DNA of 47,757 bases from a virus (taxonomy: Duplodnaviria > Heunggongvirae > Uroviricota > Caudoviricetes): IMG/VR virus record IMGVR_UViG_2529292906_000010; one strand, given 5' to 3'. The translations under genes were made by a program, and so were the position numbers. This document shows, one piece after another, positions 2 to 30,287 of this stretch (position 1 is the first letter of the stretch; each line of letters begins with the position of its first letter). Below the pieces are notes generated by a model. The model was not told the DNA's origin, ran no database searches, and saw nothing but the letters and a program-made list of their open reading frames with translations.

Positions 2-226
2 GTTAAACGGATTTATACGGCAGATGAACAGCAACAACAGGCCGAATCACAAAAGGCCGCGTTACTTTCCGAAGCAGAAAGCGTTATTCAGCCACTGGAA
101 CGCGCTGTCAGGCTGAATATGGCAACGGATGAGGAACGCACACGACTGGAAGCATGGGAACGCTACAGTGTTCTGGTCAGCCGTGTGGATACGGCAAATC
201 CTGAATGGTCACAAAAGCCTGAATAA
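2..226 (+). CDS. tail fibre assembly protein (Tfa), C-terminal fragment; 5' end outside window
   Basis: Open frame from window edge to TAA 224-226; shares a VKRIYT-EEQ-QQAE core with the 255-788 Tfa but has a different C-terminus. Confidence 0.6.
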
Positions 227-232
227 AAATTA

Positions 233-254: not shown

Positions 255-788
255 TCATTCAGGTTGTTCGGGAAATGTTACTGGCAGGCTGGAGGTGTCT
301 GTGGATTCGACTTTCTGCGCATAGAGCATCCACTCGGTTAATTTTTGTTTATTCTCGTCGGAAATGATTCCCAGCCGTAGCTGTGAATCCCATAGCTGGG
401 TTTTATCCCTGACAAGTTGCAACAGGCTTTGCTTTTCATTCTCTGCCTGCTGCCTCTGTTCCTCCTCGGTATAAATTCGCTTTATCACTACTCCATCTTT
501 GAACTTCCATTTACCCGAAATATCAGCCCGGCGATTTGCTGTAATATCTGGAACCTCAACGACGCTTGCGCCTTCTGGATTAATTGCTGAAACATCCTTT
601 TCAATACAAATAATAACGTCGTTGTGGTCATAGACCATTTTCAACGTATCAGGCTGAAAGTTCTTTTGTTCCTCATACCAGTTTTTTCCATCATCTGAAT
701 AAAGCCATTTGATGTTAAATTGTTTCGTTAGCTGGTATTGCTCTTTTGTTTTAGGGTTGCCAGCAGTAATGTTTTTTAAGTGCATCAT
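255..788 (-). CDS. tail fibre assembly protein (Tfa), inverted copy
   Basis: 177-aa ORF; first 20 nt identical to the partial gene at 47738-47757; lies immediately downstream of the inverted fibre cassette. Confidence 0.8.
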   Translation of the reverse strand: MMHLKNITAGNPKTKEQYQLTKQFNIKWLYSDDGKNWYEEQKNFQPDTLKMVYDHNDVIICIEKDVSAINPEGASVVEVPDITANRRADISGKWKFKDGVVIKRIYTEEEQRQQAENEKQSLLQLVRDKTQLWDSQLRLGIISDENKQKLTEWMLYAQKVESTDTSSLPVTFPEQPE

Positions 789-2312: not shown

Positions 2313-2440
2313 ATGGAAACAAAAAGCCCGCAGATAAATCTGCGGGCTTCTTGCGACATCCACGGAAAACCAACAACTAACCATGGGCGCCTCGACAACT
2401 CCCATTATACGTTGGTTTTCCGTGGACGCAAGAGCGAACA
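2313..2440 (-). ncRNA. candidate antisense control RNA of repA (CopA-like), with minus-strand terminator at 2322-2350
   Basis: Hairpin AGCCCGCAG-N6-CTGCGGGCT followed by a T-run on the minus strand; 15-bp stem 2360-2374/2411-2425 immediately upstream of the RepA start. Confidence 0.35.
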
Positions 2441-2441
2441 T

Positions 2442-3290
2442 ATGGATAGACCAATGCCGTCTCTACGTTCAGCTTACGTTTGTAATTTGTCGCCGGAGTT
2501 CCAGCCTCCAAAGCACCATACGCACAAGCTGCCGCTGGTGTTATCTGATGCTTTACAGCGCATTAATGGGCGTGATCTTACGTGTGAGGTTGCGTTCTAC
2601 GTTAATCAACCGTCAGAGCGGAAGCGCCGGATAAACGAGCATCGTCGTCGGGCGATTAATGCTGTGATCGCTGCGATTTTGCACCATGTAAACATCATTT
2701 CTAAGCGGGTTCTGGCTAGTGCTGAGGCGTTGGCTGATTTTTGCGGCCTGTCTACCGTATCCGAAGCTGGGAACAAGTCTATAACGCGCTGTACAAGGGC
2801 GTTGTCGCAACTGAAAGCGTTAGGTTTTATTGATTATGAACGTCGCTGGGATCGGGTGAATAAACAGTATTGGCCAGCGAAAATAGAGATTCGTGATCAA
2901 CTGCTGGAAACCGTTGGTATTACTGAACAAGCATGGAGACGTGCGGTTAGCCAGAAACTTAATTACTTCAATGCGAAGAATAGCGAACGGCTTAAAAAAG
3001 CGATAACGGAGGCTGATTATAAGCGTATTGTTATTCAGGAGCAGATGGAGAATGTATGGCGCCAGAGGAAGACGGCCAGAGAGATAAAGGCAAAACAGAA
3101 AGCAGCGGAGAGAGCTGCGCGTCTTGTCCGGGAAAAGGGAGAGGCCGAACTTCGTCATCAAATCACTAGAGAGGTTAGCCAGGAATTTGCTGATGGCATG
3201 TATCCAGGTGCTGACCTTGCATATTTACGATCCCTCGTTGAGCAGCGTTATAACAGGCTAAGAAAGACCTGGAAATCACTCCAACATTAA
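2442..3290 (+). CDS. repA: plasmid replication initiator RepA (IncFII RepA1-like)
   Basis: Recalled similarity to R100/R1 RepA1 (SITRCTRALSQLKALGFIDYE vs SITRATRALTFLSELGLITYQ); in-frame ATG at 2313 is an alternative start but overlaps the antisense hairpins. Confidence 0.75.
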   Translation: MDRPMPSLRSAYVCNLSPEFQPPKHHTHKLPLVLSDALQRINGRDLTCEVAFYVNQPSERKRRINEHRRRAINAVIAAILHHVNIISKRVLASAEALADFCGLSTVSEAGNKSITRCTRALSQLKALGFIDYERRWDRVNKQYWPAKIEIRDQLLETVGITEQAWRRAVSQKLNYFNAKNSERLKKAITEADYKRIVIQEQMENVWRQRKTAREIKAKQKAAERAARLVREKGEAELRHQITREVSQEFADGMYPGADLAYLRSLVEQRYNRLRKTWKSLQH

Positions 3291-3299
3291 CCCACCTGA

Positions 3300-3550
3300 A
3301 TGATGAATCCGGTTTTACCGGAGGATTATCTACGTCGCAATAAAATATCTGTTCAAAAAATAGTCTAAATTAATTTTCTCTAAACCTGGACACAGCAAAA
3401 ATATCGCCTTTACAGGCATCGGCTAATAAAGTTATCCACAGTTTTGATATGTATATGCAAATGGTTTTTTATAATAGATGCACTAAACAAATAAATGCAA
3501 AATCACTTTCTTTTATTAAGACTTTCTTTATTTAACTTACGCAGGCTTTG
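3300..3550. other. candidate replication origin (oriR-like) with DnaA box
   Basis: Consensus DnaA box TTATCCACA at 3432-3440 followed by ~100 bp of AT-rich DNA, directly downstream of repA as in IncFII replicons. Confidence 0.4.
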
Positions 3551-8417: not shown

Positions 8418-8582
8418 TGTGATGATTCCCTTAAAGGTTAAGGATACTCACCACCGTCAGGTTCCAATCATTGGGTGGTGAGACGTGCAGGGTTGGAACT
8501 ACCGGACACAATGACGAACCGGCGAGTCTTACGACTCCCCCGCACGCCCCACCATAATTTGGGTGTAGCAGTGCTTTACGCA

Positions 8583-8690
8583 TAAAAAAACCGCTAACGC
8601 GGTATGCGCCATTGTGTCTACGGGGTTCCAATCCCGACCGTAGATTTTGCTACGGCTCGGAAAGTGTCCACCAATGGCGCATTCATGTCA
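8583..8690 (-). ncRNA. candidate structured small RNA upstream of antirepressor operon
   Basis: Minus-strand hairpins (GCGCCATTG/CAATGGCGC; TCTACGG/CCGTAGA) ending in CCGCGTTAGCGG + T7 terminator at 8583-8605; no ORF. Confidence 0.25.
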
Positions 8691-9173
8691 ATACGGCGGG
8701 ATTTTAACAGAGACAACCACATAGCGTGGGTTTATTGGTAGGCAGAAACAAAAAAACCGCCCTATTGAGGACGGTTCTTTCGTGCTGATCGGATTCGCGG
8801 TCCTTTCAGCATTACGTTGTTGTATAAACAACCACGCAAGCACAAGCAGCAAGTTAATTTTACCCAAAAGGTAATAATAGTCCACTATTATGCTTCAAAA
8901 AATTGTGGTTCTTGTTGTGCCTGCAAACTCACAGATTGTGGGTAGGTTACTGATTTTGTGAAAATAAACGAGTTTTTTCGTTTAATTTCTTTCCTATTAC
9001 TAATCTTAAAATAATCGTAAAATACCTGTGGACCTTCCCGCCGATTCGCACCCGGGCACCGACTTTAGGGGAGGATTCTCCGTTGCCGTACATGCAAGCA
9101 CAAGCAGCCGTGCTTGCTCTCGCGTTGTTTTCGTCGGTGGGGATGCCGTGAAACGGCCTGTAAGGGCCATACA

Positions 9174-9296
9174 ATGAAAAAATACTGTATGTGTATTTTT
9201 ATCGTTGTTACTGGAGCTTTGTTTACGCCACATGGGGAGGGTTGGAAGATTACTGATAACGCTCTGAATGTGACGATAAACATTAGCAGCAAGTAG
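9174..9296 (+). CDS. small hydrophobic protein (40 aa)
   Basis: MKKYCMCIFIVVTGALFT... with AAGGG RBS; followed by terminator at 9302-9325. Confidence 0.3.
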   Translation: MKKYCMCIFIVVTGALFTPHGEGWKITDNALNVTINISSK

Positions 9297-9301
9297 CGAT
9301 T

Positions 9302-9325
9302 AGGCCCCTTCGGGGGCCTTTTTTA
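9302..9325. terminator. hairpin terminator
   Basis: AGGCCCC-TTCG-GGGGCCT followed by TTTTTT. Confidence 0.6.
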
Positions 9326-21039: not shown

Positions 21040-21115
21040 GGCCCCTTAGCTTAGTGGTTAGAGCAGGCGACTCATAATCGCACGGTCATCGGTTCAAATC
21101 CGGTAGGGGCCACCA
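21040..21115 (+). tRNA. tRNA with CAU anticodon (Met or Ile2/lysidine type)
   Basis: 76-nt cloverleaf: acceptor GGCCCCT/AGGGGCC, anticodon loop CTCATAA, T-loop GGTTCAAATCC, 3' CCA; recalled as close to E. coli tRNA-Ile2. Confidence 0.8.
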
Positions 21116-21423: not shown

Positions 21424-22011
21424 ATGGAGGCAATTGCATTGTTTAATCTGATTTATGCAGATCCCCCCTGGGAATACAAAGATAAGTGTAAGGATGGGAA
21501 TCGTGGAGCTGGTTTTAAGTATCCAACGATGAAAGCTGAGGATATTGCTCGTATTCCTGTCTGGCAGCTTGCTAATCCTGAATCGTGTTTGTTGGCCATG
21601 TGGTGGGTTCCGACTCAGCCAGAAGAAGCGTTGCTGGTGGTGAAAGCATGGGGATTCAGGCTTATGACCATGAAGGGCTTCACATGGAACAAATGTGGTA
21701 GCCGACAACCAGATAAGCTGGTGATGGGGATGGGGCATATGACTCGTGCAAACAGTGAAGATTGCTTGTTTGCGGTAAAAGGCAAATTGCCGACCCGCCT
21801 TGATGCGGGGATCATTCAGTCGTTTACATCGCCTCGTCTGGAGCATTCTCGGAAGCCTGATGTGGTTCGTGACAAGCTGGTAAGGCTGTTAGGTGATGTT
21901 CCTCGTATTGAGCTGTTTGCTCGCGGTGATTTACCTGATGGTTGGCATGGCTGGGGCAACCAGTGCAATGGAGGTATCCAGTTGCATGATGCTCTCTGGC
22001 AAGTGGCATAG
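21424..22011 (+). CDS. orphan N6-adenine DNA methyltransferase, MT-A70 family
   Basis: DPPW motif (IYADPPWEY) near N-terminus; no adjacent restriction endonuclease. Confidence 0.75.
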   Translation: MEAIALFNLIYADPPWEYKDKCKDGNRGAGFKYPTMKAEDIARIPVWQLANPESCLLAMWWVPTQPEEALLVVKAWGFRLMTMKGFTWNKCGSRQPDKLVMGMGHMTRANSEDCLFAVKGKLPTRLDAGIIQSFTSPRLEHSRKPDVVRDKLVRLLGDVPRIELFARGDLPDGWHGWGNQCNGGIQLHDALWQVA

Positions 22012-23993: not shown

Positions 23994-24617
23994 ATGACAA
24001 AACATCTTAATGTGGTTTCTTTACCACTTTCTGTGTTGATTGGTTATGAAAAGAACGCTCGCACACACTCCGTGGAGCAGGTAGATCAGATTATTGCCAG
24101 CATACAGGAGTACGGATGGACTAATCCGATCCTGATAGACGAGAACAACGTTGTAATTGCTGGTCATGGTCGAATTGCTGCGGCCACTCAGTTGGGGATG
24201 GATGATGTTCCCTGCATTGTTCTGGCTGGGCTAACGGAGAATCAGAAGAAGGCATATCGTCTGGCCGACAACCGTATTCCGCTGAATGCTGGTTGGGATG
24301 AAGAGTTGTTAAGCGCGGAGCTTGCAGATCTTGCGGCCGATGATTTTGCTCTGGACTCAATTGGTTTTACTCAGCGCGAACTGGATAACTTATTGAGTGC
24401 GGCGGTCTACGATGACACAGAGGGTATGGATATCCCATTTGAGAAGGATGAGGCCAAATCAGGCGTAAAAGTTCAGTACCTGTCATTTGGAGGTCATAAA
24501 ATCCCGGCAACGGATGAGGAAGCGGATCGTTTTGACTGCGCGGTGTCTCGTTATGTTGATGATAATGGCAGCTATATCGGATTTGTATCCGCATTGCTGG
24601 CTGGGGAGGTGTGCTGA
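23994..24617 (+). CDS. ParB/Srx-like nuclease-domain protein
   Basis: 207 aa; IAGHGRIAA box; paralogue of 27284-27874. Confidence 0.6.
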   Translation: MTKHLNVVSLPLSVLIGYEKNARTHSVEQVDQIIASIQEYGWTNPILIDENNVVIAGHGRIAAATQLGMDDVPCIVLAGLTENQKKAYRLADNRIPLNAGWDEELLSAELADLAADDFALDSIGFTQRELDNLLSAAVYDDTEGMDIPFEKDEAKSGVKVQYLSFGGHKIPATDEEADRFDCAVSRYVDDNGSYIGFVSALLAGEVC

Positions 24618-25990
24618 TGCTTCACCTCAATTACGACATAACGCACCTACGCGGCGCGGAATATAACCCGCGTTTTATCGGTGAGGATGATCTTGCGAGG
24701 CTGGCGGAAAGCGTCAGGGAGCTGGGGCTTGTGAAGCCATTGATAGTGCGCGGCGATTTGCTGGTGGCGGGACACCAAAGGACGAAGGCGCTACGTAAGT
24801 TGGGAATAACGCGTGCTGCGGTGTATGTGTTGCCCTGTGAAACGACGGTATACGACGAAGTACGGTTTAACCAACTGCATAACGGAACGGATTTTGATAG
24901 CGGAGATGAGCGTTGCAGGGTGTCCGGTCTGGAAGATAAGCATGGTTTTGTTCAGGTATCGGCAAGCCAGATCTCAGGCAATATGCGCGCGAAAATGGCA
25001 TATGTTCGAAAGAACATAGCGGAACTGGTTATCAAGTATGGTCCGTGGGGTGGTTGTGTTGCTACTCAGTCTGGTGAGGTTATTCACTGTGCTCAGTATG
25101 CATTAGCAGCGAAAATGACGCGCACACCGCTAACGGTGTTTGTGATCCCTGATGTTGAGAAGGAAAAATACCAAAGTTATCTGAATAAAACTTATGGTGT
25201 ATTTGAGTATTCTCATCTGGAGAAAACAACATACATCCAGACGTATGCGCAGCTTATGCGGTTGCGTAATGGTGGCAGCCTGAAATCAAATCTGTATGAG
25301 TCGTTGATCCTCCCGATCGTTGCCAAGACGCCAAGAGGAATTGATTTTGGTTCGGGGCAGGGAGACTACGCGCGAATGCTCAGGGCAAAGGGATATAACC
25401 TGCATGATCTTGAGCTTTTTCGCCGTAAGGGCGCTGGAAACACTCTGGATAGGGCTGCAACAAACCGAATGATTGATACGCTGGTGGACGACTTAAAAAC
25501 GCGAGGGCGTTACGACTACGTGATTTGCGATAGCGTTTTGAACTCGGTCGATAGTGTCGAGGCTGAATGGTCCGTTCTGACGGTTCTGAAAGGCCTGTGT
25601 AAAGCTGGTGGGTCAATATTCTTTTCTGGTCGTAGCCGTGGAGAGCTGGAAACAGTCCTGAAGCAAACACAAGCGGCGAGTTCCAAAAGCCGGCTTTATT
25701 TTATTGATCATAACGGTTTTACCGCGTTGTACCGGAAGGGGCACTGGTTTTACCAGAAGTTTCACTCTGATGATGAAGTGAAGCAGTTGTGTCGTGTACA
25801 TGGTTTCAGGATTAAGCGGTCAATATTCAACTGTAAGAGCTGGTATTTGCACGTCATTAACGATGATTCCCTTAGTTGGGCGAGTCTGGAGAAAGCTGTT
25901 CGTTTTGAGTTTGAGTTGCCGTTGCCTGGTGGTTCAACAATCGGACGATCTGATGATGTGCTGGCGGCTTTCCGGCCGTTGATTAAGTAG
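24611..25990 (+). CDS. ParB/Srx-like N-terminal domain fused to class I SAM-dependent methyltransferase domain
   Basis: 459 aa; VAGHQRTKA box; motif I GIDFGSGQGDYARML; no DPPY/NPPY motif. Confidence 0.6.
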   Translation: MLMLHLNYDITHLRGAEYNPRFIGEDDLARLAESVRELGLVKPLIVRGDLLVAGHQRTKALRKLGITRAAVYVLPCETTVYDEVRFNQLHNGTDFDSGDERCRVSGLEDKHGFVQVSASQISGNMRAKMAYVRKNIAELVIKYGPWGGCVATQSGEVIHCAQYALAAKMTRTPLTVFVIPDVEKEKYQSYLNKTYGVFEYSHLEKTTYIQTYAQLMRLRNGGSLKSNLYESLILPIVAKTPRGIDFGSGQGDYARMLRAKGYNLHDLELFRRKGAGNTLDRAATNRMIDTLVDDLKTRGRYDYVICDSVLNSVDSVEAEWSVLTVLKGLCKAGGSIFFSGRSRGELETVLKQTQAASSKSRLYFIDHNGFTALYRKGHWFYQKFHSDDEVKQLCRVHGFRIKRSIFNCKSWYLHVINDDSLSWASLEKAVRFEFELPLPGGSTIGRSDDVLAAFRPLIK

Positions 25991-26006: not shown

Positions 26007-26726
26007 GTGGCTGACAGAATTGAGATAAAGATGGATTTTTCTTCTCAGGATATTCAACGACAACTCCAGCGCCTTGAAGAACGCGAATTGCCGTTCGCAA
26101 TGGCGCTTGCGGCAACCAGAACGGCAAAGGCTTCTCAGGCTGCGATTAAGAATGAAATTAATCGGGTATTTGACAGGCCCACGCCGTGGATTCAGAACTC
26201 TACTTACGTTTTGGCCGCAAAGAAGAGTGATCCTACAGCCATTGTGTATGCTCGTGAATGGGGAGGAACGCCAGCCCCTGTAACGTTGACTCCGCAAATT
26301 GAAGGTGGCCAACGACAGTACAAACGCTCAGAAGGGGCGCTAAGGGCTGGTGGATATTTGCCTAACGGCTGGCAGCTTGCTCCTGGTCCCGGCGCAAAGC
26401 TGGACAAATACGGGAATATTTCGCGGGGGCAATTACAGAAGGTCTTATCTGGCCTAAGAGTTCAGCGAGATGCGCATCAAAATCGCCGTCAGGGCAAGCC
26501 TACGGAGTTTTTTGTTGTTCGACCTGGTACAGGTAACCCGCTTCAACCAGGCGTCTGGCAGCGCGTTGGGCGGCGTCCTACGTTGATCCTTACGTTTATC
26601 CAGCAACCTAACTATTCACAGCGTCTTGATTGGCATGGCGTGGCGCTGCGTGCTGGTGAGGATGCGTTTGCTGATGAAGTCACAAAGGCTATTGATGACA
26701 TTCTTTCTAAGACCTTCTCTCGTTAA
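26007..26726 (+). CDS. hypothetical protein
   Basis: 239-aa ORF with GTG start. Confidence 0.5.
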   Translation: MADRIEIKMDFSSQDIQRQLQRLEERELPFAMALAATRTAKASQAAIKNEINRVFDRPTPWIQNSTYVLAAKKSDPTAIVYAREWGGTPAPVTLTPQIEGGQRQYKRSEGALRAGGYLPNGWQLAPGPGAKLDKYGNISRGQLQKVLSGLRVQRDAHQNRRQGKPTEFFVVRPGTGNPLQPGVWQRVGRRPTLILTFIQQPNYSQRLDWHGVALRAGEDAFADEVTKAIDDILSKTFSR

Positions 26727-27283
26727 TCATCGTGTGGTTGATGGTGTTGTTATGCAGAGTGTATTCACTGTGTTCTGTAGCGTCGCTCGCTGGCTGTCTG
26801 TGGGGGAGCACGAGCATCGTTTCATCGTCCGGCAGAATTGGGTCCTTCTGGCCAAAAGCGTTGGATGCGGGTCATTCGAACCCCGATGTTCGGCTAGCTA
26901 AACGTGAAAAAAGTTAGGTTAAAAGTTGCGGTAAAAGAAATTTACTCATCTCATTGAAAAATATCGGGAAAACGTGATTTTTTGCTGTATTTGTGCTGGT
27001 AAAAAGAAAGTAGGAAATTTTCTTTTAGATCATCAAGATACGCGCAGATCTTTAACCAATGTGATGTTGTTCTGATAAAAATCGTTATAAATCATGTAAA
27101 TACATCCAATCTTTTAACCAAAACACCATCGCAAGATCCTTTTTACTTATAAAAACTTAATAAAATCAGATAATTATGCTGGTTTGTGTGATTTTTTATG
27201 AGTAAAAAGATCGTCATTTTTCTCTTTTAGTATCAATAAGTTAAACAGTTTTCTTTAACCTGTTGTGTTATGGCGGTTAAAAA

Positions 27284-27874
27284 ATGGCTCTAAAAATCGA
27301 ATATTTACCAGTCGGTAAGCTGCTCAGATATGCCAAAAATTCACGGACTCATTCAGATGAGCAAGTTGAACAGTTGGTGAACAGTATCCGTGAGTTCGGT
27401 TTCACTAATCCTGTGCTGATCGATGAAAAGAATGAACTGATTGCGGGGCATGGTCGGCTTGCAGCAGCCGAAATTCTGGAAATGGATAAAGTTCCGGCGA
27501 TTCGGTTGAGTAACCTTTCTGAAAAACAGAAGAAGGCTTACAGGATTGCAGATAACAAGCTGGCCTTAAATGCTGGTTGGGATATGCAGCTTCTGGCCGA
27601 AGAAGTCAAAGAGTTAATGGATGATGATTTTGATATTGATCTGCTTGGGTTTAATGATGCAGAGCTTGACGAAATGTTAAGCGATGAACAGCCGCAGGAA
27701 GAAGACGATAATTCTTCCCCTGTTGTTCAAATTAAGTACCTGGCTATTGATAAAGAACGTATTCCCGCGACGGATATGGAAATTGCATTGTTGCTGGATG
27801 TTTATCGTCAGTACCACGATGCGCATGAAACGCATGAGGGATTTGTTCAGTATCTTGCTAATGGTTGCAAGTAA
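27284..27874 (+). CDS. ParB/Srx-like nuclease-domain protein
   Basis: 196 aa; IAGHGRLAAA box; immediately upstream of terminase small subunit. Confidence 0.6.
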   Translation: MALKIEYLPVGKLLRYAKNSRTHSDEQVEQLVNSIREFGFTNPVLIDEKNELIAGHGRLAAAEILEMDKVPAIRLSNLSEKQKKAYRIADNKLALNAGWDMQLLAEEVKELMDDDFDIDLLGFNDAELDEMLSDEQPQEEDDNSSPVVQIKYLAIDKERIPATDMEIALLLDVYRQYHDAHETHEGFVQYLANGCK

Positions 27875-28425
27875 TGGCCATCGTCAGTAAGTCAGAGTTT
27901 GCCCGCCGGAAAGGTATTTCTCCGGCAATGGTTACGAAGCTCTGTCGTTCCGGTCGCATTCCAGTGCTGAAAAGCGGCAAGCTGGATTTTGATAAAGCCA
28001 GTGCGGCTTATGAAGCGAGCCGACAGGTTGGTCGTGAGGTATCTGCTGAAAATGGAAAAAGAGGGCATGGGATATCTTCGGAACAACCAGAGTTACCCGC
28101 TGATGATGTCGGATTAGCTGGTGGTACTTCCGGTGTTGCGGTGCAATTCAACAAGGCTAAGACCGCAGAAAAAATTTATCAGGCAAAGCTGAAACGCCTT
28201 GAATTTGAAGAAAAGGAAGGCTCTCTCATCGCTAAAGATACGGTCAGGGATGATGCATTTCTGGCAGCTAATGAATTGCGTAGCCGCTTATTTAGTATTG
28301 CTCCAAGAGCAGCTCCCCGTTGTGAAGGCAAAACAGCCAGGGAGATCGAACGCATTATTGAAGACGAGATTAATTTTGCGCTTCAGGCGCTCCAGGAATC
28401 CCGATTTATTAAGCAGGAAGAATAA
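27865..28425 (+). CDS. terminase small subunit
   Basis: N-terminal HTH (SKSEFARRKGISPAMVTKL); directly upstream of terminase large subunit; start may be ATG 27874. Confidence 0.6.
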   Translation: MQVMAIVSKSEFARRKGISPAMVTKLCRSGRIPVLKSGKLDFDKASAAYEASRQVGREVSAENGKRGHGISSEQPELPADDVGLAGGTSGVAVQFNKAKTAEKIYQAKLKRLEFEEKEGSLIAKDTVRDDAFLAANELRSRLFSIAPRAAPRCEGKTAREIERIIEDEINFALQALQESRFIKQEE

Positions 28426-28430
28426 ACCTC

Positions 28431-30287
28431 ATGGGCGAAACAGTATGGAGCACCGCTTTTTTCCGTGCGCTTCGCCCTAAATCACGGCTAACTGTTTCCG
28501 AATGGGCTGATAAGTATCGTCATGTAGCGCCGGGAACGTCTCCAGAGCCAGGGCCGTGGCGTACAAGCCGAGTGCCATATTTGCGTGAACCAATGGATGT
28601 TATTGGTGACGCTGATACAGAAACAGTAGTGATGCAATGTAGCTCGCAAATTGGTAAATCCGAATTACAGCTAAATGTTATGGGTTACTTTGCAGATCAG
28701 GAGCCATCTCCTCAGTTGATGATTTATCCAACGGTAGAGGCGGCTGAGGCTTTTTCAAAGGAGCGTATTGATCCGACGTTCAAATATTCCCCTGGTTTGA
28801 AACACAAGCTGCATGAAGGAAAAGAGGGGCGCGGTGCAGCCAAAAAGTCCAGCACGACTATACGTATGAAGCATTACGCTGGTGGATATATAGCACTTGT
28901 TGGTGCTAATTCCCCAGCAGGTCTTGCATCCAGGCCAATTCGAATACTGTTAGCTGATGAGATTGATCGTTACGGTGTGACGCAGGAGGGCGACCCACTA
29001 AAACTAGGTATTCAGCGTACTACCAACTTTCATAATCGTAAGAAAGTTTTTGTTTCTACTCCTGTTTTTGAGGAAACGAGCAAAATCCACAAGTGGTTTA
29101 AGCTCTCCGATCAGCGTTACTACCATGTTCCTTGCCCATGTTGTGGCACCATGCAGGTGATGAAATGGTCGCAAGTCAGATGGGATAAGAGCGATTCAGG
29201 TGAGGCGTTACCGGAAACGGCCAGATATGAGTGCTGTGAGTGCGGCGGGATTATGCGCGGATCTGGTAAACCAGACGTTGATTGGTTGGCAAAGGGGGTA
29301 TGGATAGCTGAACATACTGGAGTTAAAGGTATTGTTGGTTTTCATATTAACAGTCTTTACTCCCCGTGGGTTGCATTGTCAGAGCTGGTTGAAGAATTTA
29401 CGGAAGCAACCAGAAACCGCGATAAAAATGGATTAATGGAGTTTATTAACCTTAAGCTGGGTGAGCCATGGAAAGAGGATGCTAAAGACGATATCGATCC
29501 TGAATACTTGTTGCAACGCAGAATAAGGTTTGAAGAGTTTTTACCAGATGATGTTTTATTGTTAAGTGCTGGTGTTGACGTACAGGACACGTATTTAGTT
29601 TGTGAATTGGTCGGTTGGGGAAAAGGTAAGGAGTCATGGGGGATAGAATATAAAATATTCCCAGGTGATCCCGCACAAGATGTTGTCTGGAAACAACTTG
29701 ATGAATACTTACTCCGTAGCTGGTCATTCCGTGACGGTCGAAAATTACAGATTTCTTCTGTTTGTATTGACTCTGGTGGGCATTTTACGACAGAGGTATA
29801 TCGCTTCACTAAGCTGAGAGAATCAAGGCGAATATACTCTATCAGGGGGCGTGGTGGGGTAGGTTTACCATTTATAGGAAAGCCAAGTAATAATAACCGT
29901 GTGGGTGCTATGTTGTTTAATTTGGGGGTTGATGATGGTAAAGGGACCATCATGGCAAGAATTAAACTACATGATCCTGGTCCTGGTTATATGCATTTCC
30001 CATTAGATTCTGACAGAGGATATGATACCGAATACTTTAAAGGATTATTATCAGAGAAAAAAATATTTGAATATAAAAATGGGCAGACAAAAGAAAAGTG
30101 GGTGAAAGTCTACGAGCGTAACGAGCCTCTTGATTGCCGTAACTATGCAACTGCCGCGATGGAAATTCTGAACCCTAATTTTAACTGGCTTGCCGAACAG
30201 GAAATGCGAGGTAATGTGTATGTGCAGAACTCGTCAGGTATACGTAGAAGACGCCGTAGAGTTATAAGTAAAGGCGTAAACATATAG
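28431..30287 (+). CDS. terminase large subunit (lambda gpA family)
   Basis: 618 aa; position and length typical of gpA-type terminase. Confidence 0.85.
   Translation: MGETVWSTAFFRALRPKSRLTVSEWADKYRHVAPGTSPEPGPWRTSRVPYLREPMDVIGDADTETVVMQCSSQIGKSELQLNVMGYFADQEPSPQLMIYPTVEAAEAFSKERIDPTFKYSPGLKHKLHEGKEGRGAAKKSSTTIRMKHYAGGYIALVGANSPAGLASRPIRILLADEIDRYGVTQEGDPLKLGIQRTTNFHNRKKVFVSTPVFEETSKIHKWFKLSDQRYYHVPCPCCGTMQVMKWSQVRWDKSDSGEALPETARYECCECGGIMRGSGKPDVDWLAKGVWIAEHTGVKGIVGFHINSLYSPWVALSELVEEFTEATRNRDKNGLMEFINLKLGEPWKEDAKDDIDPEYLLQRRIRFEEFLPDDVLLLSAGVDVQDTYLVCELVGWGKGKESWGIEYKIFPGDPAQDVVWKQLDEYLLRSWSFRDGRKLQISSVCIDSGGHFTTEVYRFTKLRESRRIYSIRGRGGVGLPFIGKPSNNNRVGAMLFNLGVDDGKGTIMARIKLHDPGPGYMHFPLDSDRGYDTEYFKGLLSEKKIFEYKNGQTKEKWVKVYERNEPLDCRNYATAAMEILNPNFNWLAEQEMRGNVYVQNSSGIRRRRRRVISKGVNI

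Follow-up and report, generated by a model that had tools for sequence, protein, structure and literature searches.

The cos sites of lambda and of the plasmid prophage N15 are the closest well-described counterparts of the locus analysed here. Their cosQ is a highly conserved 7-bp site that is needed for the termination of packaging and that has been reported to be free of variation among lambda-like phages (PMC4669245). On the other side of the cut site cosN, the R3 repeat of both lambda and N15 occupies bp 48-65, and its distance to cosN is critical (PMC9026076). The locus in question is a noncoding stretch of 557 bp, positions 26727-27283 of a viral sequence of 47,757 nt (IMG/VR record IMGVR_UViG_2529292906_000010; the whole of this sequence is referred to as the window). 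On its left it follows the stop codon of a 239-aa open reading frame (ORF; 26007-26726; PHROG 1924, 'minor tail protein'); on its right, a ParB_N gene begins with its ATG at 27284. We consider it highly probable that this stretch is a complete lambda-type cos site of a ~48-kb phage-plasmid, carrying an extended cosB-like array. Support comes from sequence comparison, namely the positions of genome ends in relatives, the homology of cosQ and cosN to their lambda counterparts, and the architecture and conservation of the repeats.

The element represented by the window is a circular myovirus phage-plasmid of ~48 kb that occurs in E. coli and Yersinia. A 601-bp query around the region found matches in 72 of 5426 complete E. 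coli genomes (~1.3%), including ATCC 25922, and 71 of the 72 are plasmids of ~48 kb. The window encodes an IncFII-type RepA, and the annotation of the homologous ATCC 25922 plasmid lists ParA, lysis genes and a contractile tail. Over the region, the window is 97-99% identical to three phages that form plaques on Yersinia pestis (vB_YpM_39, vB_YpM_41 and vB_YpM_44). Relatives for comparison were taken from IMG/VR, where they comprise three close clades (the window's own, ii and iii) as well as the contigs L048, L050 and L051, whose small terminase subunit (TerS) is 52-57% identical; a TerS-based search for related loci in genome contigs returned no relatives. By their large terminase subunit (TerL), the closest non-identical relatives are the Vibrio phages X29, phi 2, XM1, PVP-XSN, R19R and Rostov 7 (proposed 'Weiviridae'), and we found no description of a cos site in papers on these phages.

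The cut site could be located from the points at which the genome records of relatives begin and end. The GenBank records of vB_YpM_41 and vB_YpM_39 start at the equivalent of 26870 (GGTCATTCGAAC CCCGATG...) and end at 26869, and that of vB_YpM_44 starts at 26882 and ends at 26881, closing with GGTCATTCGAAC; the same 12-mer is the left end in two Yersinia phage records and the right end in the third. The records of the Vibrio phages XM1, PVP-XSN, X29 and R19R have their breaks no more than 2 nt (0-2 nt) away from the same two points by homology: PVP-XSN opens with GGTGCTCGCGAC, X29 and R19R break 1-2 nt from the right-hand point, and XM1 carries GGTGCTCGCGAC at both ends plus an extra A at the right end. 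The record of Rostov 7 holds the homologous cos site internally. Altogether, seven independently deposited virion genomes from two genera have their breaks at or within 2 nt of homologous points that lie 12 nt apart. For X29, defined ends with steep coverage drop-offs have been described (PMC5690320). In the Acinetobacter phage HFM1 (TerL 46% identical), an 11-nt 5′ cohesive end was annotated by PhageTerm, and the nick flanks GCG/GG...AC/CCC (slashes mark the nicks) are common to HFM1 and the window.

Based on these record breaks, the end duplication of XM1, and the end and flanks of HFM1, we place the cohesive-end sequence of cosN, GGTCATTCGAAC, at 26870-26881 on the plus strand, where the top strand would be nicked at 26869/26870 and the bottom strand at 26881/26882. 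The overhangs are likely 5′: the presence of the 12-mer at both ends of XM1 is as expected from fill-in of 5′ overhangs, and the N15 record annotates a 12-nt 5′ extension. The combined pattern cosQ-N23-cosN occurs a single time in the window. A full-text literature search for the cosN 12-mer returned an unrelated yeast paper only, and a scan of 596 Gb of genome contigs for GGGTCATTCGAACCCC gave 79 matches in unrelated bacteria and archaea, a number that is at chance level for a 16-mer by estimate and hence uninformative.

Upstream of the cut, the cosQ-like heptamer GGGTCCT lies at 26840-26846 on the plus strand and begins 30 nt before the left nick. The same offset is found in N15 and in the lambda record, where the heptamer begins 30 nt before the end; we take this lambda 7-mer, at bp 48473-48479, to be the cosQ of Wieczorek & Feiss 2001. 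XM1 likewise has the heptamer at -30, and X29, Rostov 7, L048 and L050 have it at -29. Among the IMG/VR relatives, every locus in which the region is present (24 of 26) has the heptamer unchanged, and we estimate the chance of a GGGTCCT match within +/-1 nt of the expected offset at ~2e-4. Searching the literature for GGGTCCT in connection with cosQ gave nothing relevant. Judged by sequence and spacing, cosQ and cosN of the window are homologous to those of lambda, and GGGTCCT would act in the termination of packaging.

To the right of the cut, 26882-26913 (plus strand) comprises the right flank of cosN and an I2-like segment, CCCGATGTTCGGCTAGCTAAACGTGAAAAAAG. Here, the string CCCG..TT.CG.CTAGCTA followed by an A-tract is common to the window and the Vibrio phages, and it resembles CGCGGGTTTTCGCTAT...GAAAA of lambda and N15. 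This segment is part of the block from cosQ to I2 in which identity between clades reaches the maximum of the locus (84-89%). From there, identity falls to a minimum of 47-50% in the middle of the region and amounts to 65-68% in the distal block. The spacer that separates the end of the 239-aa ORF from cosQ (26727-26837) appears unconstrained, as the left 111 bp are 32% identical between clades, i.e. unalignable, compared with 73-78% in the flanking genes (coding DNA).

This profile bears on the original prediction, which had described the stretch as AT-rich DNA lacking a credible ORF and as a candidate cos or pac site or late promoter. The absence of a gene is borne out: there are short ORFs only, none of them annotated in RefSeq plasmid or phage records, and neither Rfam (gathering thresholds) nor ARAGORN found an RNA gene in 26727-27283. 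The AT-richness applies to 26893-27283 (29% GC) but not to 26727-26892 (54% GC). As for function, the proposed cos site does lie within this stretch, whereas pac disagrees with the defined ends and the GpA-type TerL, and a promoter was not found (see below). The guess of a cos site was right for other reasons than those given. Its core (26840-26846 and 26870-26881) sits in the GC-normal left part, which had not been singled out.

Much of the remaining sequence is taken up by repeats, whose offsets are counted here from the right nick (26881/26882). Footprinting across the clades and L048, L050 and L051 gives the motif GGTWAAAAG (complement CTTTTWACC), of which TTTAACC is the core. Three TTTAACC copies had already been noticed; with minor coordinate corrections they lie at 27051, 27113 and 27254, and inverted copies (GGTTAAA) are found at 26917 and 27275. 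These are five of the 14 copies in the window, gathered in 0.84% of its length, an enrichment far beyond chance given that 2000 dinucleotide shuffles of the region contain 0.15 copies on average and never more than 2. Similarly, seven of 16 window copies of GGT[AT]AAA[AG] fall within 402 bp (shuffles: mean 0.18, maximum 3), as do nine of 17 copies of a relaxed motif (shuffle mean 0.5). No second cluster of GGT[AT]AAA[AG] was seen in the window, where the motif precedes no other operon, and when the region was compared by BLAST with the remainder of the window, neither a second copy nor a related regulatory region emerged.

The copies occupy defined positions. Forward copies are located at +36, +49, +117, +320 and +394, reverse copies at +166, +228, +256 and +369; that at +394 overlaps the parB_N start codon and is doubtful. 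The first two are GGTTAAAAG (26917-26925, plus strand, +36) and GGTAAAAGA, which is of the GGTAAAGA type (26930-26938, plus strand, +49); at this place, TTAGGTTAAAAGT is unchanged across the three clades. Counted from the left nick, the two copies cover bp 48-69, the first copy covering bp 48-56, which would correspond to the position of R3. Further downstream, GGTAAAAAG (26998-27006, plus strand) lies at +117 and is found at +116 to +118 in every enteric lineage; the same consistency applies to CTTTTAACC (27111-27119, minus strand; +228, range +226 to +229) and TCTTTAACC (27252-27260, minus strand; +369, range +362 to +370). A second TCTTTAACC copy (27049-27057, minus strand, +166) is situated inside a variable segment. 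L048, L050 and L051 use another motif, GGTTAACAAA, at the same offsets, i.e. +36, +49, +116-118, +165-167(-), +226-229(-) and +362-370(-). X29 and HFM1 retain the site at +37/+38; the Vibrio phages have five forward copies of GTTAACAC from +37 on, while in HFM1 the stretch from cosN to terS contains TAACAC at +38 and, after it, inverted copies (GTGTTAA).

The variable segment, 27008-27097, is the least conserved part of the array and appears dispensable. It holds the +166 copy and two GATC sites (27028 and 27047), all of which are lost through a natural 90-bp deletion of 27008-27097 in the viable phage vB_YpM_44 (L004). This deletion shifts the +256(-) copy to exactly the vacated +166(-) offset, a re-occupation that may reflect coincidence or selection for position. 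To our knowledge, the array as a whole is much longer and richer in copies than any cosB described.

Its distal part contains an inverted R-like pair at 27135-27212, each arm of which abuts a GATC site (GATCCTTTTTACTTAT, 27135-27150; ATGAGTAAAAAGATC, 27198-27212). The arms co-vary between clades, reading CT[TC]AT in the window clade and [TC]CCAT in clade ii. Between the inverted copies (27139 and 27201) lies a perfect match to the consensus of integration host factor (IHF), AATCAGATAATTA (WATCARNNNNTTR), at 27164-27176 on the plus strand. All three close clades retain this candidate as AATCAG-NNNN-TTA (variable N), whereas L048-type relatives lack it. A second perfect match, TATCAATAAGTTA (27231-27243, plus strand), has been preserved by clade iii but has degenerated in clade ii; on both strands of the 47.7-kb window there are nine perfect matches, two of them in the region. 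From its conservation and placement, 27164-27176 is a putative IHF-binding site.

This arrangement invites a different view of the distal AT-rich half (~27100-27283), which might chiefly be regulatory: a late or IHF-dependent promoter/operator of parB_N-terS-terL, in which the repeats serve as operators for a regulator or for autoregulation by TerS. We regard this as possible though not probable, and it could coexist with a cos site. The higher identity of the distal block compared to the middle fits such a role, as does the inverted repeat around a conserved IHF consensus ~110 bp upstream of the ATG. Moreover, weak 8/12 matches to sigma-70 promoters are present at +265 and +269 in the window and clade ii, and the Vibrio relatives need only ~130 bp between cosN and the gene. 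However, the intergenic region contains no sigma-70 promoter-like match of at least 9/12, a test whose reach does not extend to activator-dependent promoters, and a relaxed scan of six lineages gave 8/12 matches only, with no position common to them. A terminator was not found on the plus strand of the intergenic region either, and read-through from the long co-oriented gene block upstream, across cos as in lambda, is a plausible source of late transcripts. Lastly, the distal repeats share their motif with those proximal to cosN, stand at fixed offsets from cosN, and their motif precedes no other operon in the window, which argues against a chiefly regulatory role.

The genes that follow are those of a packaging module. 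A 196-aa ParB_N (ParB/Srx) protein (27284-27874, plus strand; Pfam PF02195, PHROG 620) is encoded between cos and terS, a position that is likewise occupied in every enteric and Vibrio relative. The product of the first gene of phage X29 shares 59% identity with it, and HFM1 lacks the gene. terS (27865-28425, plus strand; PHROG 57) and terL (28431-30287, plus strand) come next, the latter encoding a large terminase subunit of the lambda gpA family (GpA_ATPase PF05876, E 5e-76; GpA_nuclease PF20454, E 5e-84) that is 28% identical to lambda gpA (E 5e-62). For TerS, hhalign places residues 7-38 on residues 3-33 of lambda Nu1, i.e. the helix-turn-helix (HTH), with an E-value of 0.0012 at a low probability of 19%. 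The N-terminal domain of its AlphaFold model (predicted local distance difference test score, pLDDT, ~89) has as its best fold matches MerR/Xis/RacA-type winged HTH domains and 6hn7_B, all with E >0.1.

Both of the first two proteins are candidates for binding the repeats. The HTH of TerS varies together with the repeat motif: SPAMVTK (GISPAMVTKL) is paired with GGTWAAAAG, SRAA[IV]TK with GGTTAACAAA, and SHV.. (SHVWVKKL or SHVRINKL) with TTAACAC, the last in Vibrio and Acinetobacter alike. If the repeats were instead bound by the adjacent ParB_N protein, they would constitute a centromere-like or packaging-accessory array, which we think unlikely. Classical ParB proteins bind repeats close to their own genes, the gene immediately behind the array encodes ParB_N throughout the enteric and Vibrio relatives, and array, parB_N and terS move as one mosaic block. 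Yet HFM1 has the TAACAC copy at +38 and the inverted GTGTTAA copies without having a ParB_N gene, and it shares both the SHV residues of the TerS HTH and the TTAACAC motif with the Vibrio phages. In addition, Pfam detected no HTH in the 196-aa protein, the ParB_N domain being the sole match, and the plasmid has a separate ParA locus. Since HFM1 has repeats in the absence of this gene, TerS is favoured over the ParB_N protein, and we infer that TerS binds the GGTWAAAAG repeats.

The mosaic block is apparent from two IMG/VR loci, L025 and L029, which share 97-100% identity to the left of the cut site and again once the 3′ end of terS is reached. In between, across cosB-parB_N-terS (window ~26880-28380), they are 50-85% identical, with a sharp mosaic boundary, so that cosB, parB_N and terS travel as one block. 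Such a pattern points to cassette-like exchange of the packaging-recognition block. An interpretation of this exchange as a specificity swap like that between lambda and 21 was toned down, as the three close clades do not differ in the HTH of TerS; with identical HTHs in L025 and L029, the exchange demonstrates linkage rather than a switch in specificity. Separately, it was observed that three ParB_N (ParB/Srx) paralogues bracket cos (23994-24617, 24611-25990 and 27284-27874), one of which (459 aa) is fused to a Methyltransf_23 domain.

The original prediction had also pointed to four GATC sites and proposed to test for dependence on Dam methylation. The cluster exists: GATC occurs at 27028, 27047, 27135 and 27209, each time as AGATC, and four sites in 190 bp are the maximum of the window, which has only three clusters of that density and in which GATC is depleted (125 found vs 179 expected). 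The enrichment is modest, however, and not conserved, and the spacer between the first two AGATC measures 14 nt rather than the 16 nt stated. The Dam argument itself proved weak, as the segment that holds this AGATC-N14-AGATCT pair is the one with the lowest conservation (47-50%), and as the pair has lost one or both of its sites in sister phages.

A Dam-controlled packaging or regulatory site with the four GATC as its functional core, resembling P1 pac or a Dam-sensitive promoter, is improbable. P1 packages by the headful mechanism, using PacA/PacB and seven TGATCA/G elements, and there are parallels: a GATC cluster near the packaging genes of a plasmid prophage, P1-like c4 antisense RNA immunity, and an MT-A70 methyltransferase encoded by the element. 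All but one of the four GATC sites lie immediately next to an R-like repeat (GATC[C]TTTWAC), and those at +254 and +328 recur in three clades. On the other hand, the site at 27028 is mutated in vB_YpM_41, that at 27047 is mutated in vB_YpM_39, and both are deleted in the viable vB_YpM_44. Even the +254 and +328 sites are kept in most but not all members of the three close clades, both being absent from L024 and L044, and they are missing from L048, L050 and the Vibrio phages; overall, no more than one GATC (0-1) is present in the Vibrio phages and in the relatives whose TerS is 52-57% identical. A P1-type pac site is contradicted by the defined ends of the relatives and the GpA cos type of the terminase, which speak against headful packaging, and by the lack of conservation of the GATC sites. 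With sites lost or deleted in sister phages and absent from distant relatives, the GATC cluster seems mostly incidental, and Dam control does not appear to be a family feature, though it is conceivable for the two sites that are joined to the inverted pair.

That 26727-27283 is the replication origin or partition site of the plasmid prophage is the least credible alternative and was rejected: although the element is a plasmid in 71 of the 72 E. coli genomes and the region is rich in AT, iteron-like repeats and GATC, it contains no DnaA box, the IncFII-type repA (2313-3290) and the sole perfect DnaA box of the window (TTATCCACA at 3432, ~140 bp downstream of repA) lie elsewhere and are the probable plasmid origin, in the plasmid of ATCC 25922 ParA is annotated at a distance of ~16 kb from cos, and the Vibrio phages carry a homologous array without being plasmids.

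The interpretation as a lambda-type cos site can also be weighed against the described sites themselves. With lambda, the window shares a predicted 12-nt staggered cut, GGGTCCT 30 nt before the left nick, CG/GG at that nick, a T/A-tract after cosN, a first repeat at ~bp 48 and repeats in both orientations. A putative IHF-consensus site between an inverted pair, following an R3-I1-R2-like logic, and a GpA-family TerL together with a TerS bearing a putative N-terminal HTH, both encoded downstream, add to the resemblance. N15 has cosQ at -30 and a plasmid-prophage lifestyle in common with the window (PMC4669245), and the 12-nt 5′ sticky end of its record is of the kind that is likely here, but its cosB is minimal (R3 only), the opposite extreme to the array described here, and it is a siphovirus with a linear plasmid rather than a myovirus with a circular IncFII-RepA plasmid. 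The Vibrio phages have a homologous cosQ-cosN (GGGTCCT at -29/-30, the 12-mer GGTGCTCGCGAC and CCCG..TTTCGTCTAGCTAC), the gene order ParB_N-terS-terL (TerL 62-65%, TerS 43% and ParB_N 59% identical) and a first repeat at +37; they differ in having ~130 bp from cosN to the first gene, with five GTTAACAC repeats in the same orientation, and in lacking GATC sites and a plasmid replicon. HFM1 agrees in the GCG/GG...AC/CCC flanks, in its terminase (TerS 35%, TerL 46% identical) and in having TAACAC at +38 ahead of inverted copies, and differs by its 11-nt overhang, the lack of GGGTCCT at -30 and the lack of a ParB_N gene.

Several points weigh against the assignment. The ends of cosN are read indirectly, from the records of relatives, and the Yersinia phage records are flagged as circular and unpublished, with starts that were possibly set by software or by the authors; the polarity of the overhangs relies on the end duplication of XM1 and the annotations of HFM1 and N15. 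The cohesive end is unrelated to that of lambda beyond GG.C, and the right nick is flanked by CC instead of the CG conserved in lambda-like phages. cosQ is not universal in the wider family either: at -29, L051 (~1955-1996) reads AGGTACT where the others read GGGTCCT, and no heptamer was found at -30 when the right end of HFM1 (L133) was searched, in contrast to the reportedly invariant cosQ of lambda-like phages (PMC4669245). The array, with the motif GGTWAAAAG instead of the lambda R sequence, spans ~390 bp with 6-9 copies, three times the length of the 120-bp, three-copy cosB of lambda, and 90 bp of it are dispensable in vB_YpM_44, so its distal half is perhaps accessory or has another role. 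The IHF-like site is ~280 bp from cosN, not ~80. Furthermore, terS does not directly adjoin cosB due to the intervening ParB_N gene, adjoining being typical of the lambda type though not strictly defining it. TerL is only 28% identical to gpA. No similarity of TerS to Nu1 was found by BLASTP, a phmmer search of PDB sequences was negative, and the E-values of the TerS fold matches are non-significant.

Taking the locus as a lambda-type cos site, packaging could proceed as follows. During lytic growth, TerS bound to the repeats right of the cut would anchor the GpA-type terminase, which would then nick the two strands 12 nt apart, giving virion DNA with GGTCATTCGAAC cohesive ends, most likely as 5′ overhangs. 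Packaging would run rightward, into the parB_N-terS-terL side, and would terminate, aided by the GGGTCCT heptamer of cosQ, when the following cos is reached. The AT-rich part from 26882 to 27283 would act as an extended cosB with at least six positionally fixed GGTWAAAAG copies, and the extra copies at +256(-) and +320(+) would flank the IHF-consensus site.

Away from the cos region, three features of the element were observed in passing. Adjacent Rfam matches to C4 antisense RNA (8471-8559, minus strand), isrK (8584-8656, minus strand) and ryfA (9028-9324, plus strand) form a cluster in the window, and an ORF6N/Ant-like gene adjoins the corresponding position in the homologous ATCC 25922 plasmid, which points to a P1/P7-type antisense immunity module in a phage-plasmid other than P1. 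A tRNA gene with the anticodon CAT (21040-21115), located just upstream of the MT-A70 methyltransferase gene (21424-22011), is classified as tRNA-Met by ARAGORN and its homologue as tRNA-Ile in the RefSeq record of the ATCC 25922 plasmid; it may be a lysidine-type tRNA-Ile2. Finally, positions 43036-48163 of the ATCC 25922 copy (NZ_CP117232.1; L008) contain a tail-fibre gene, oppositely oriented tail-fibre assembly genes, a gene of the recombinase family and an inverted, truncated piece of a tail-fibre gene, a layout that, by analogy, resembles the invertible host-range segments Mu G and P1 C.

For this lineage of phage-plasmids and Vibrio myoviruses, a far-reaching and quite speculative extension, to which we give little weight, is a packaging initiation complex of three components. 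In it, 6-9 TerS sites in two blocks of opposed orientation would fold ~400 bp together with TerS and a dedicated ParB_N protein (ParB/Srx fold), and the enteric GATC sites at 27135 and 27209 would render the complex Dam-sensitive. If this were true, Dam-sensitive assembly would couple the cleavage of cos to the replication status of a replicon that is also maintained as an uncut plasmid.

More generally, the analysis provides base-level coordinates of the packaging site for a family that is present in ~1.3% of complete E. coli genomes and also infects Yersinia pestis. Such coordinates can be used for annotation, for the prediction of virion genome ends and for cosmid-like or transduction tools. 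The retention of the cosQ heptamer and its 30-nt offset at 28% TerL identity to lambda widens the reach of the lambda termination signal. Lastly, cosB regions with the same site positions and three motifs that track the HTH of TerS form a series that could test how small terminases read DNA.

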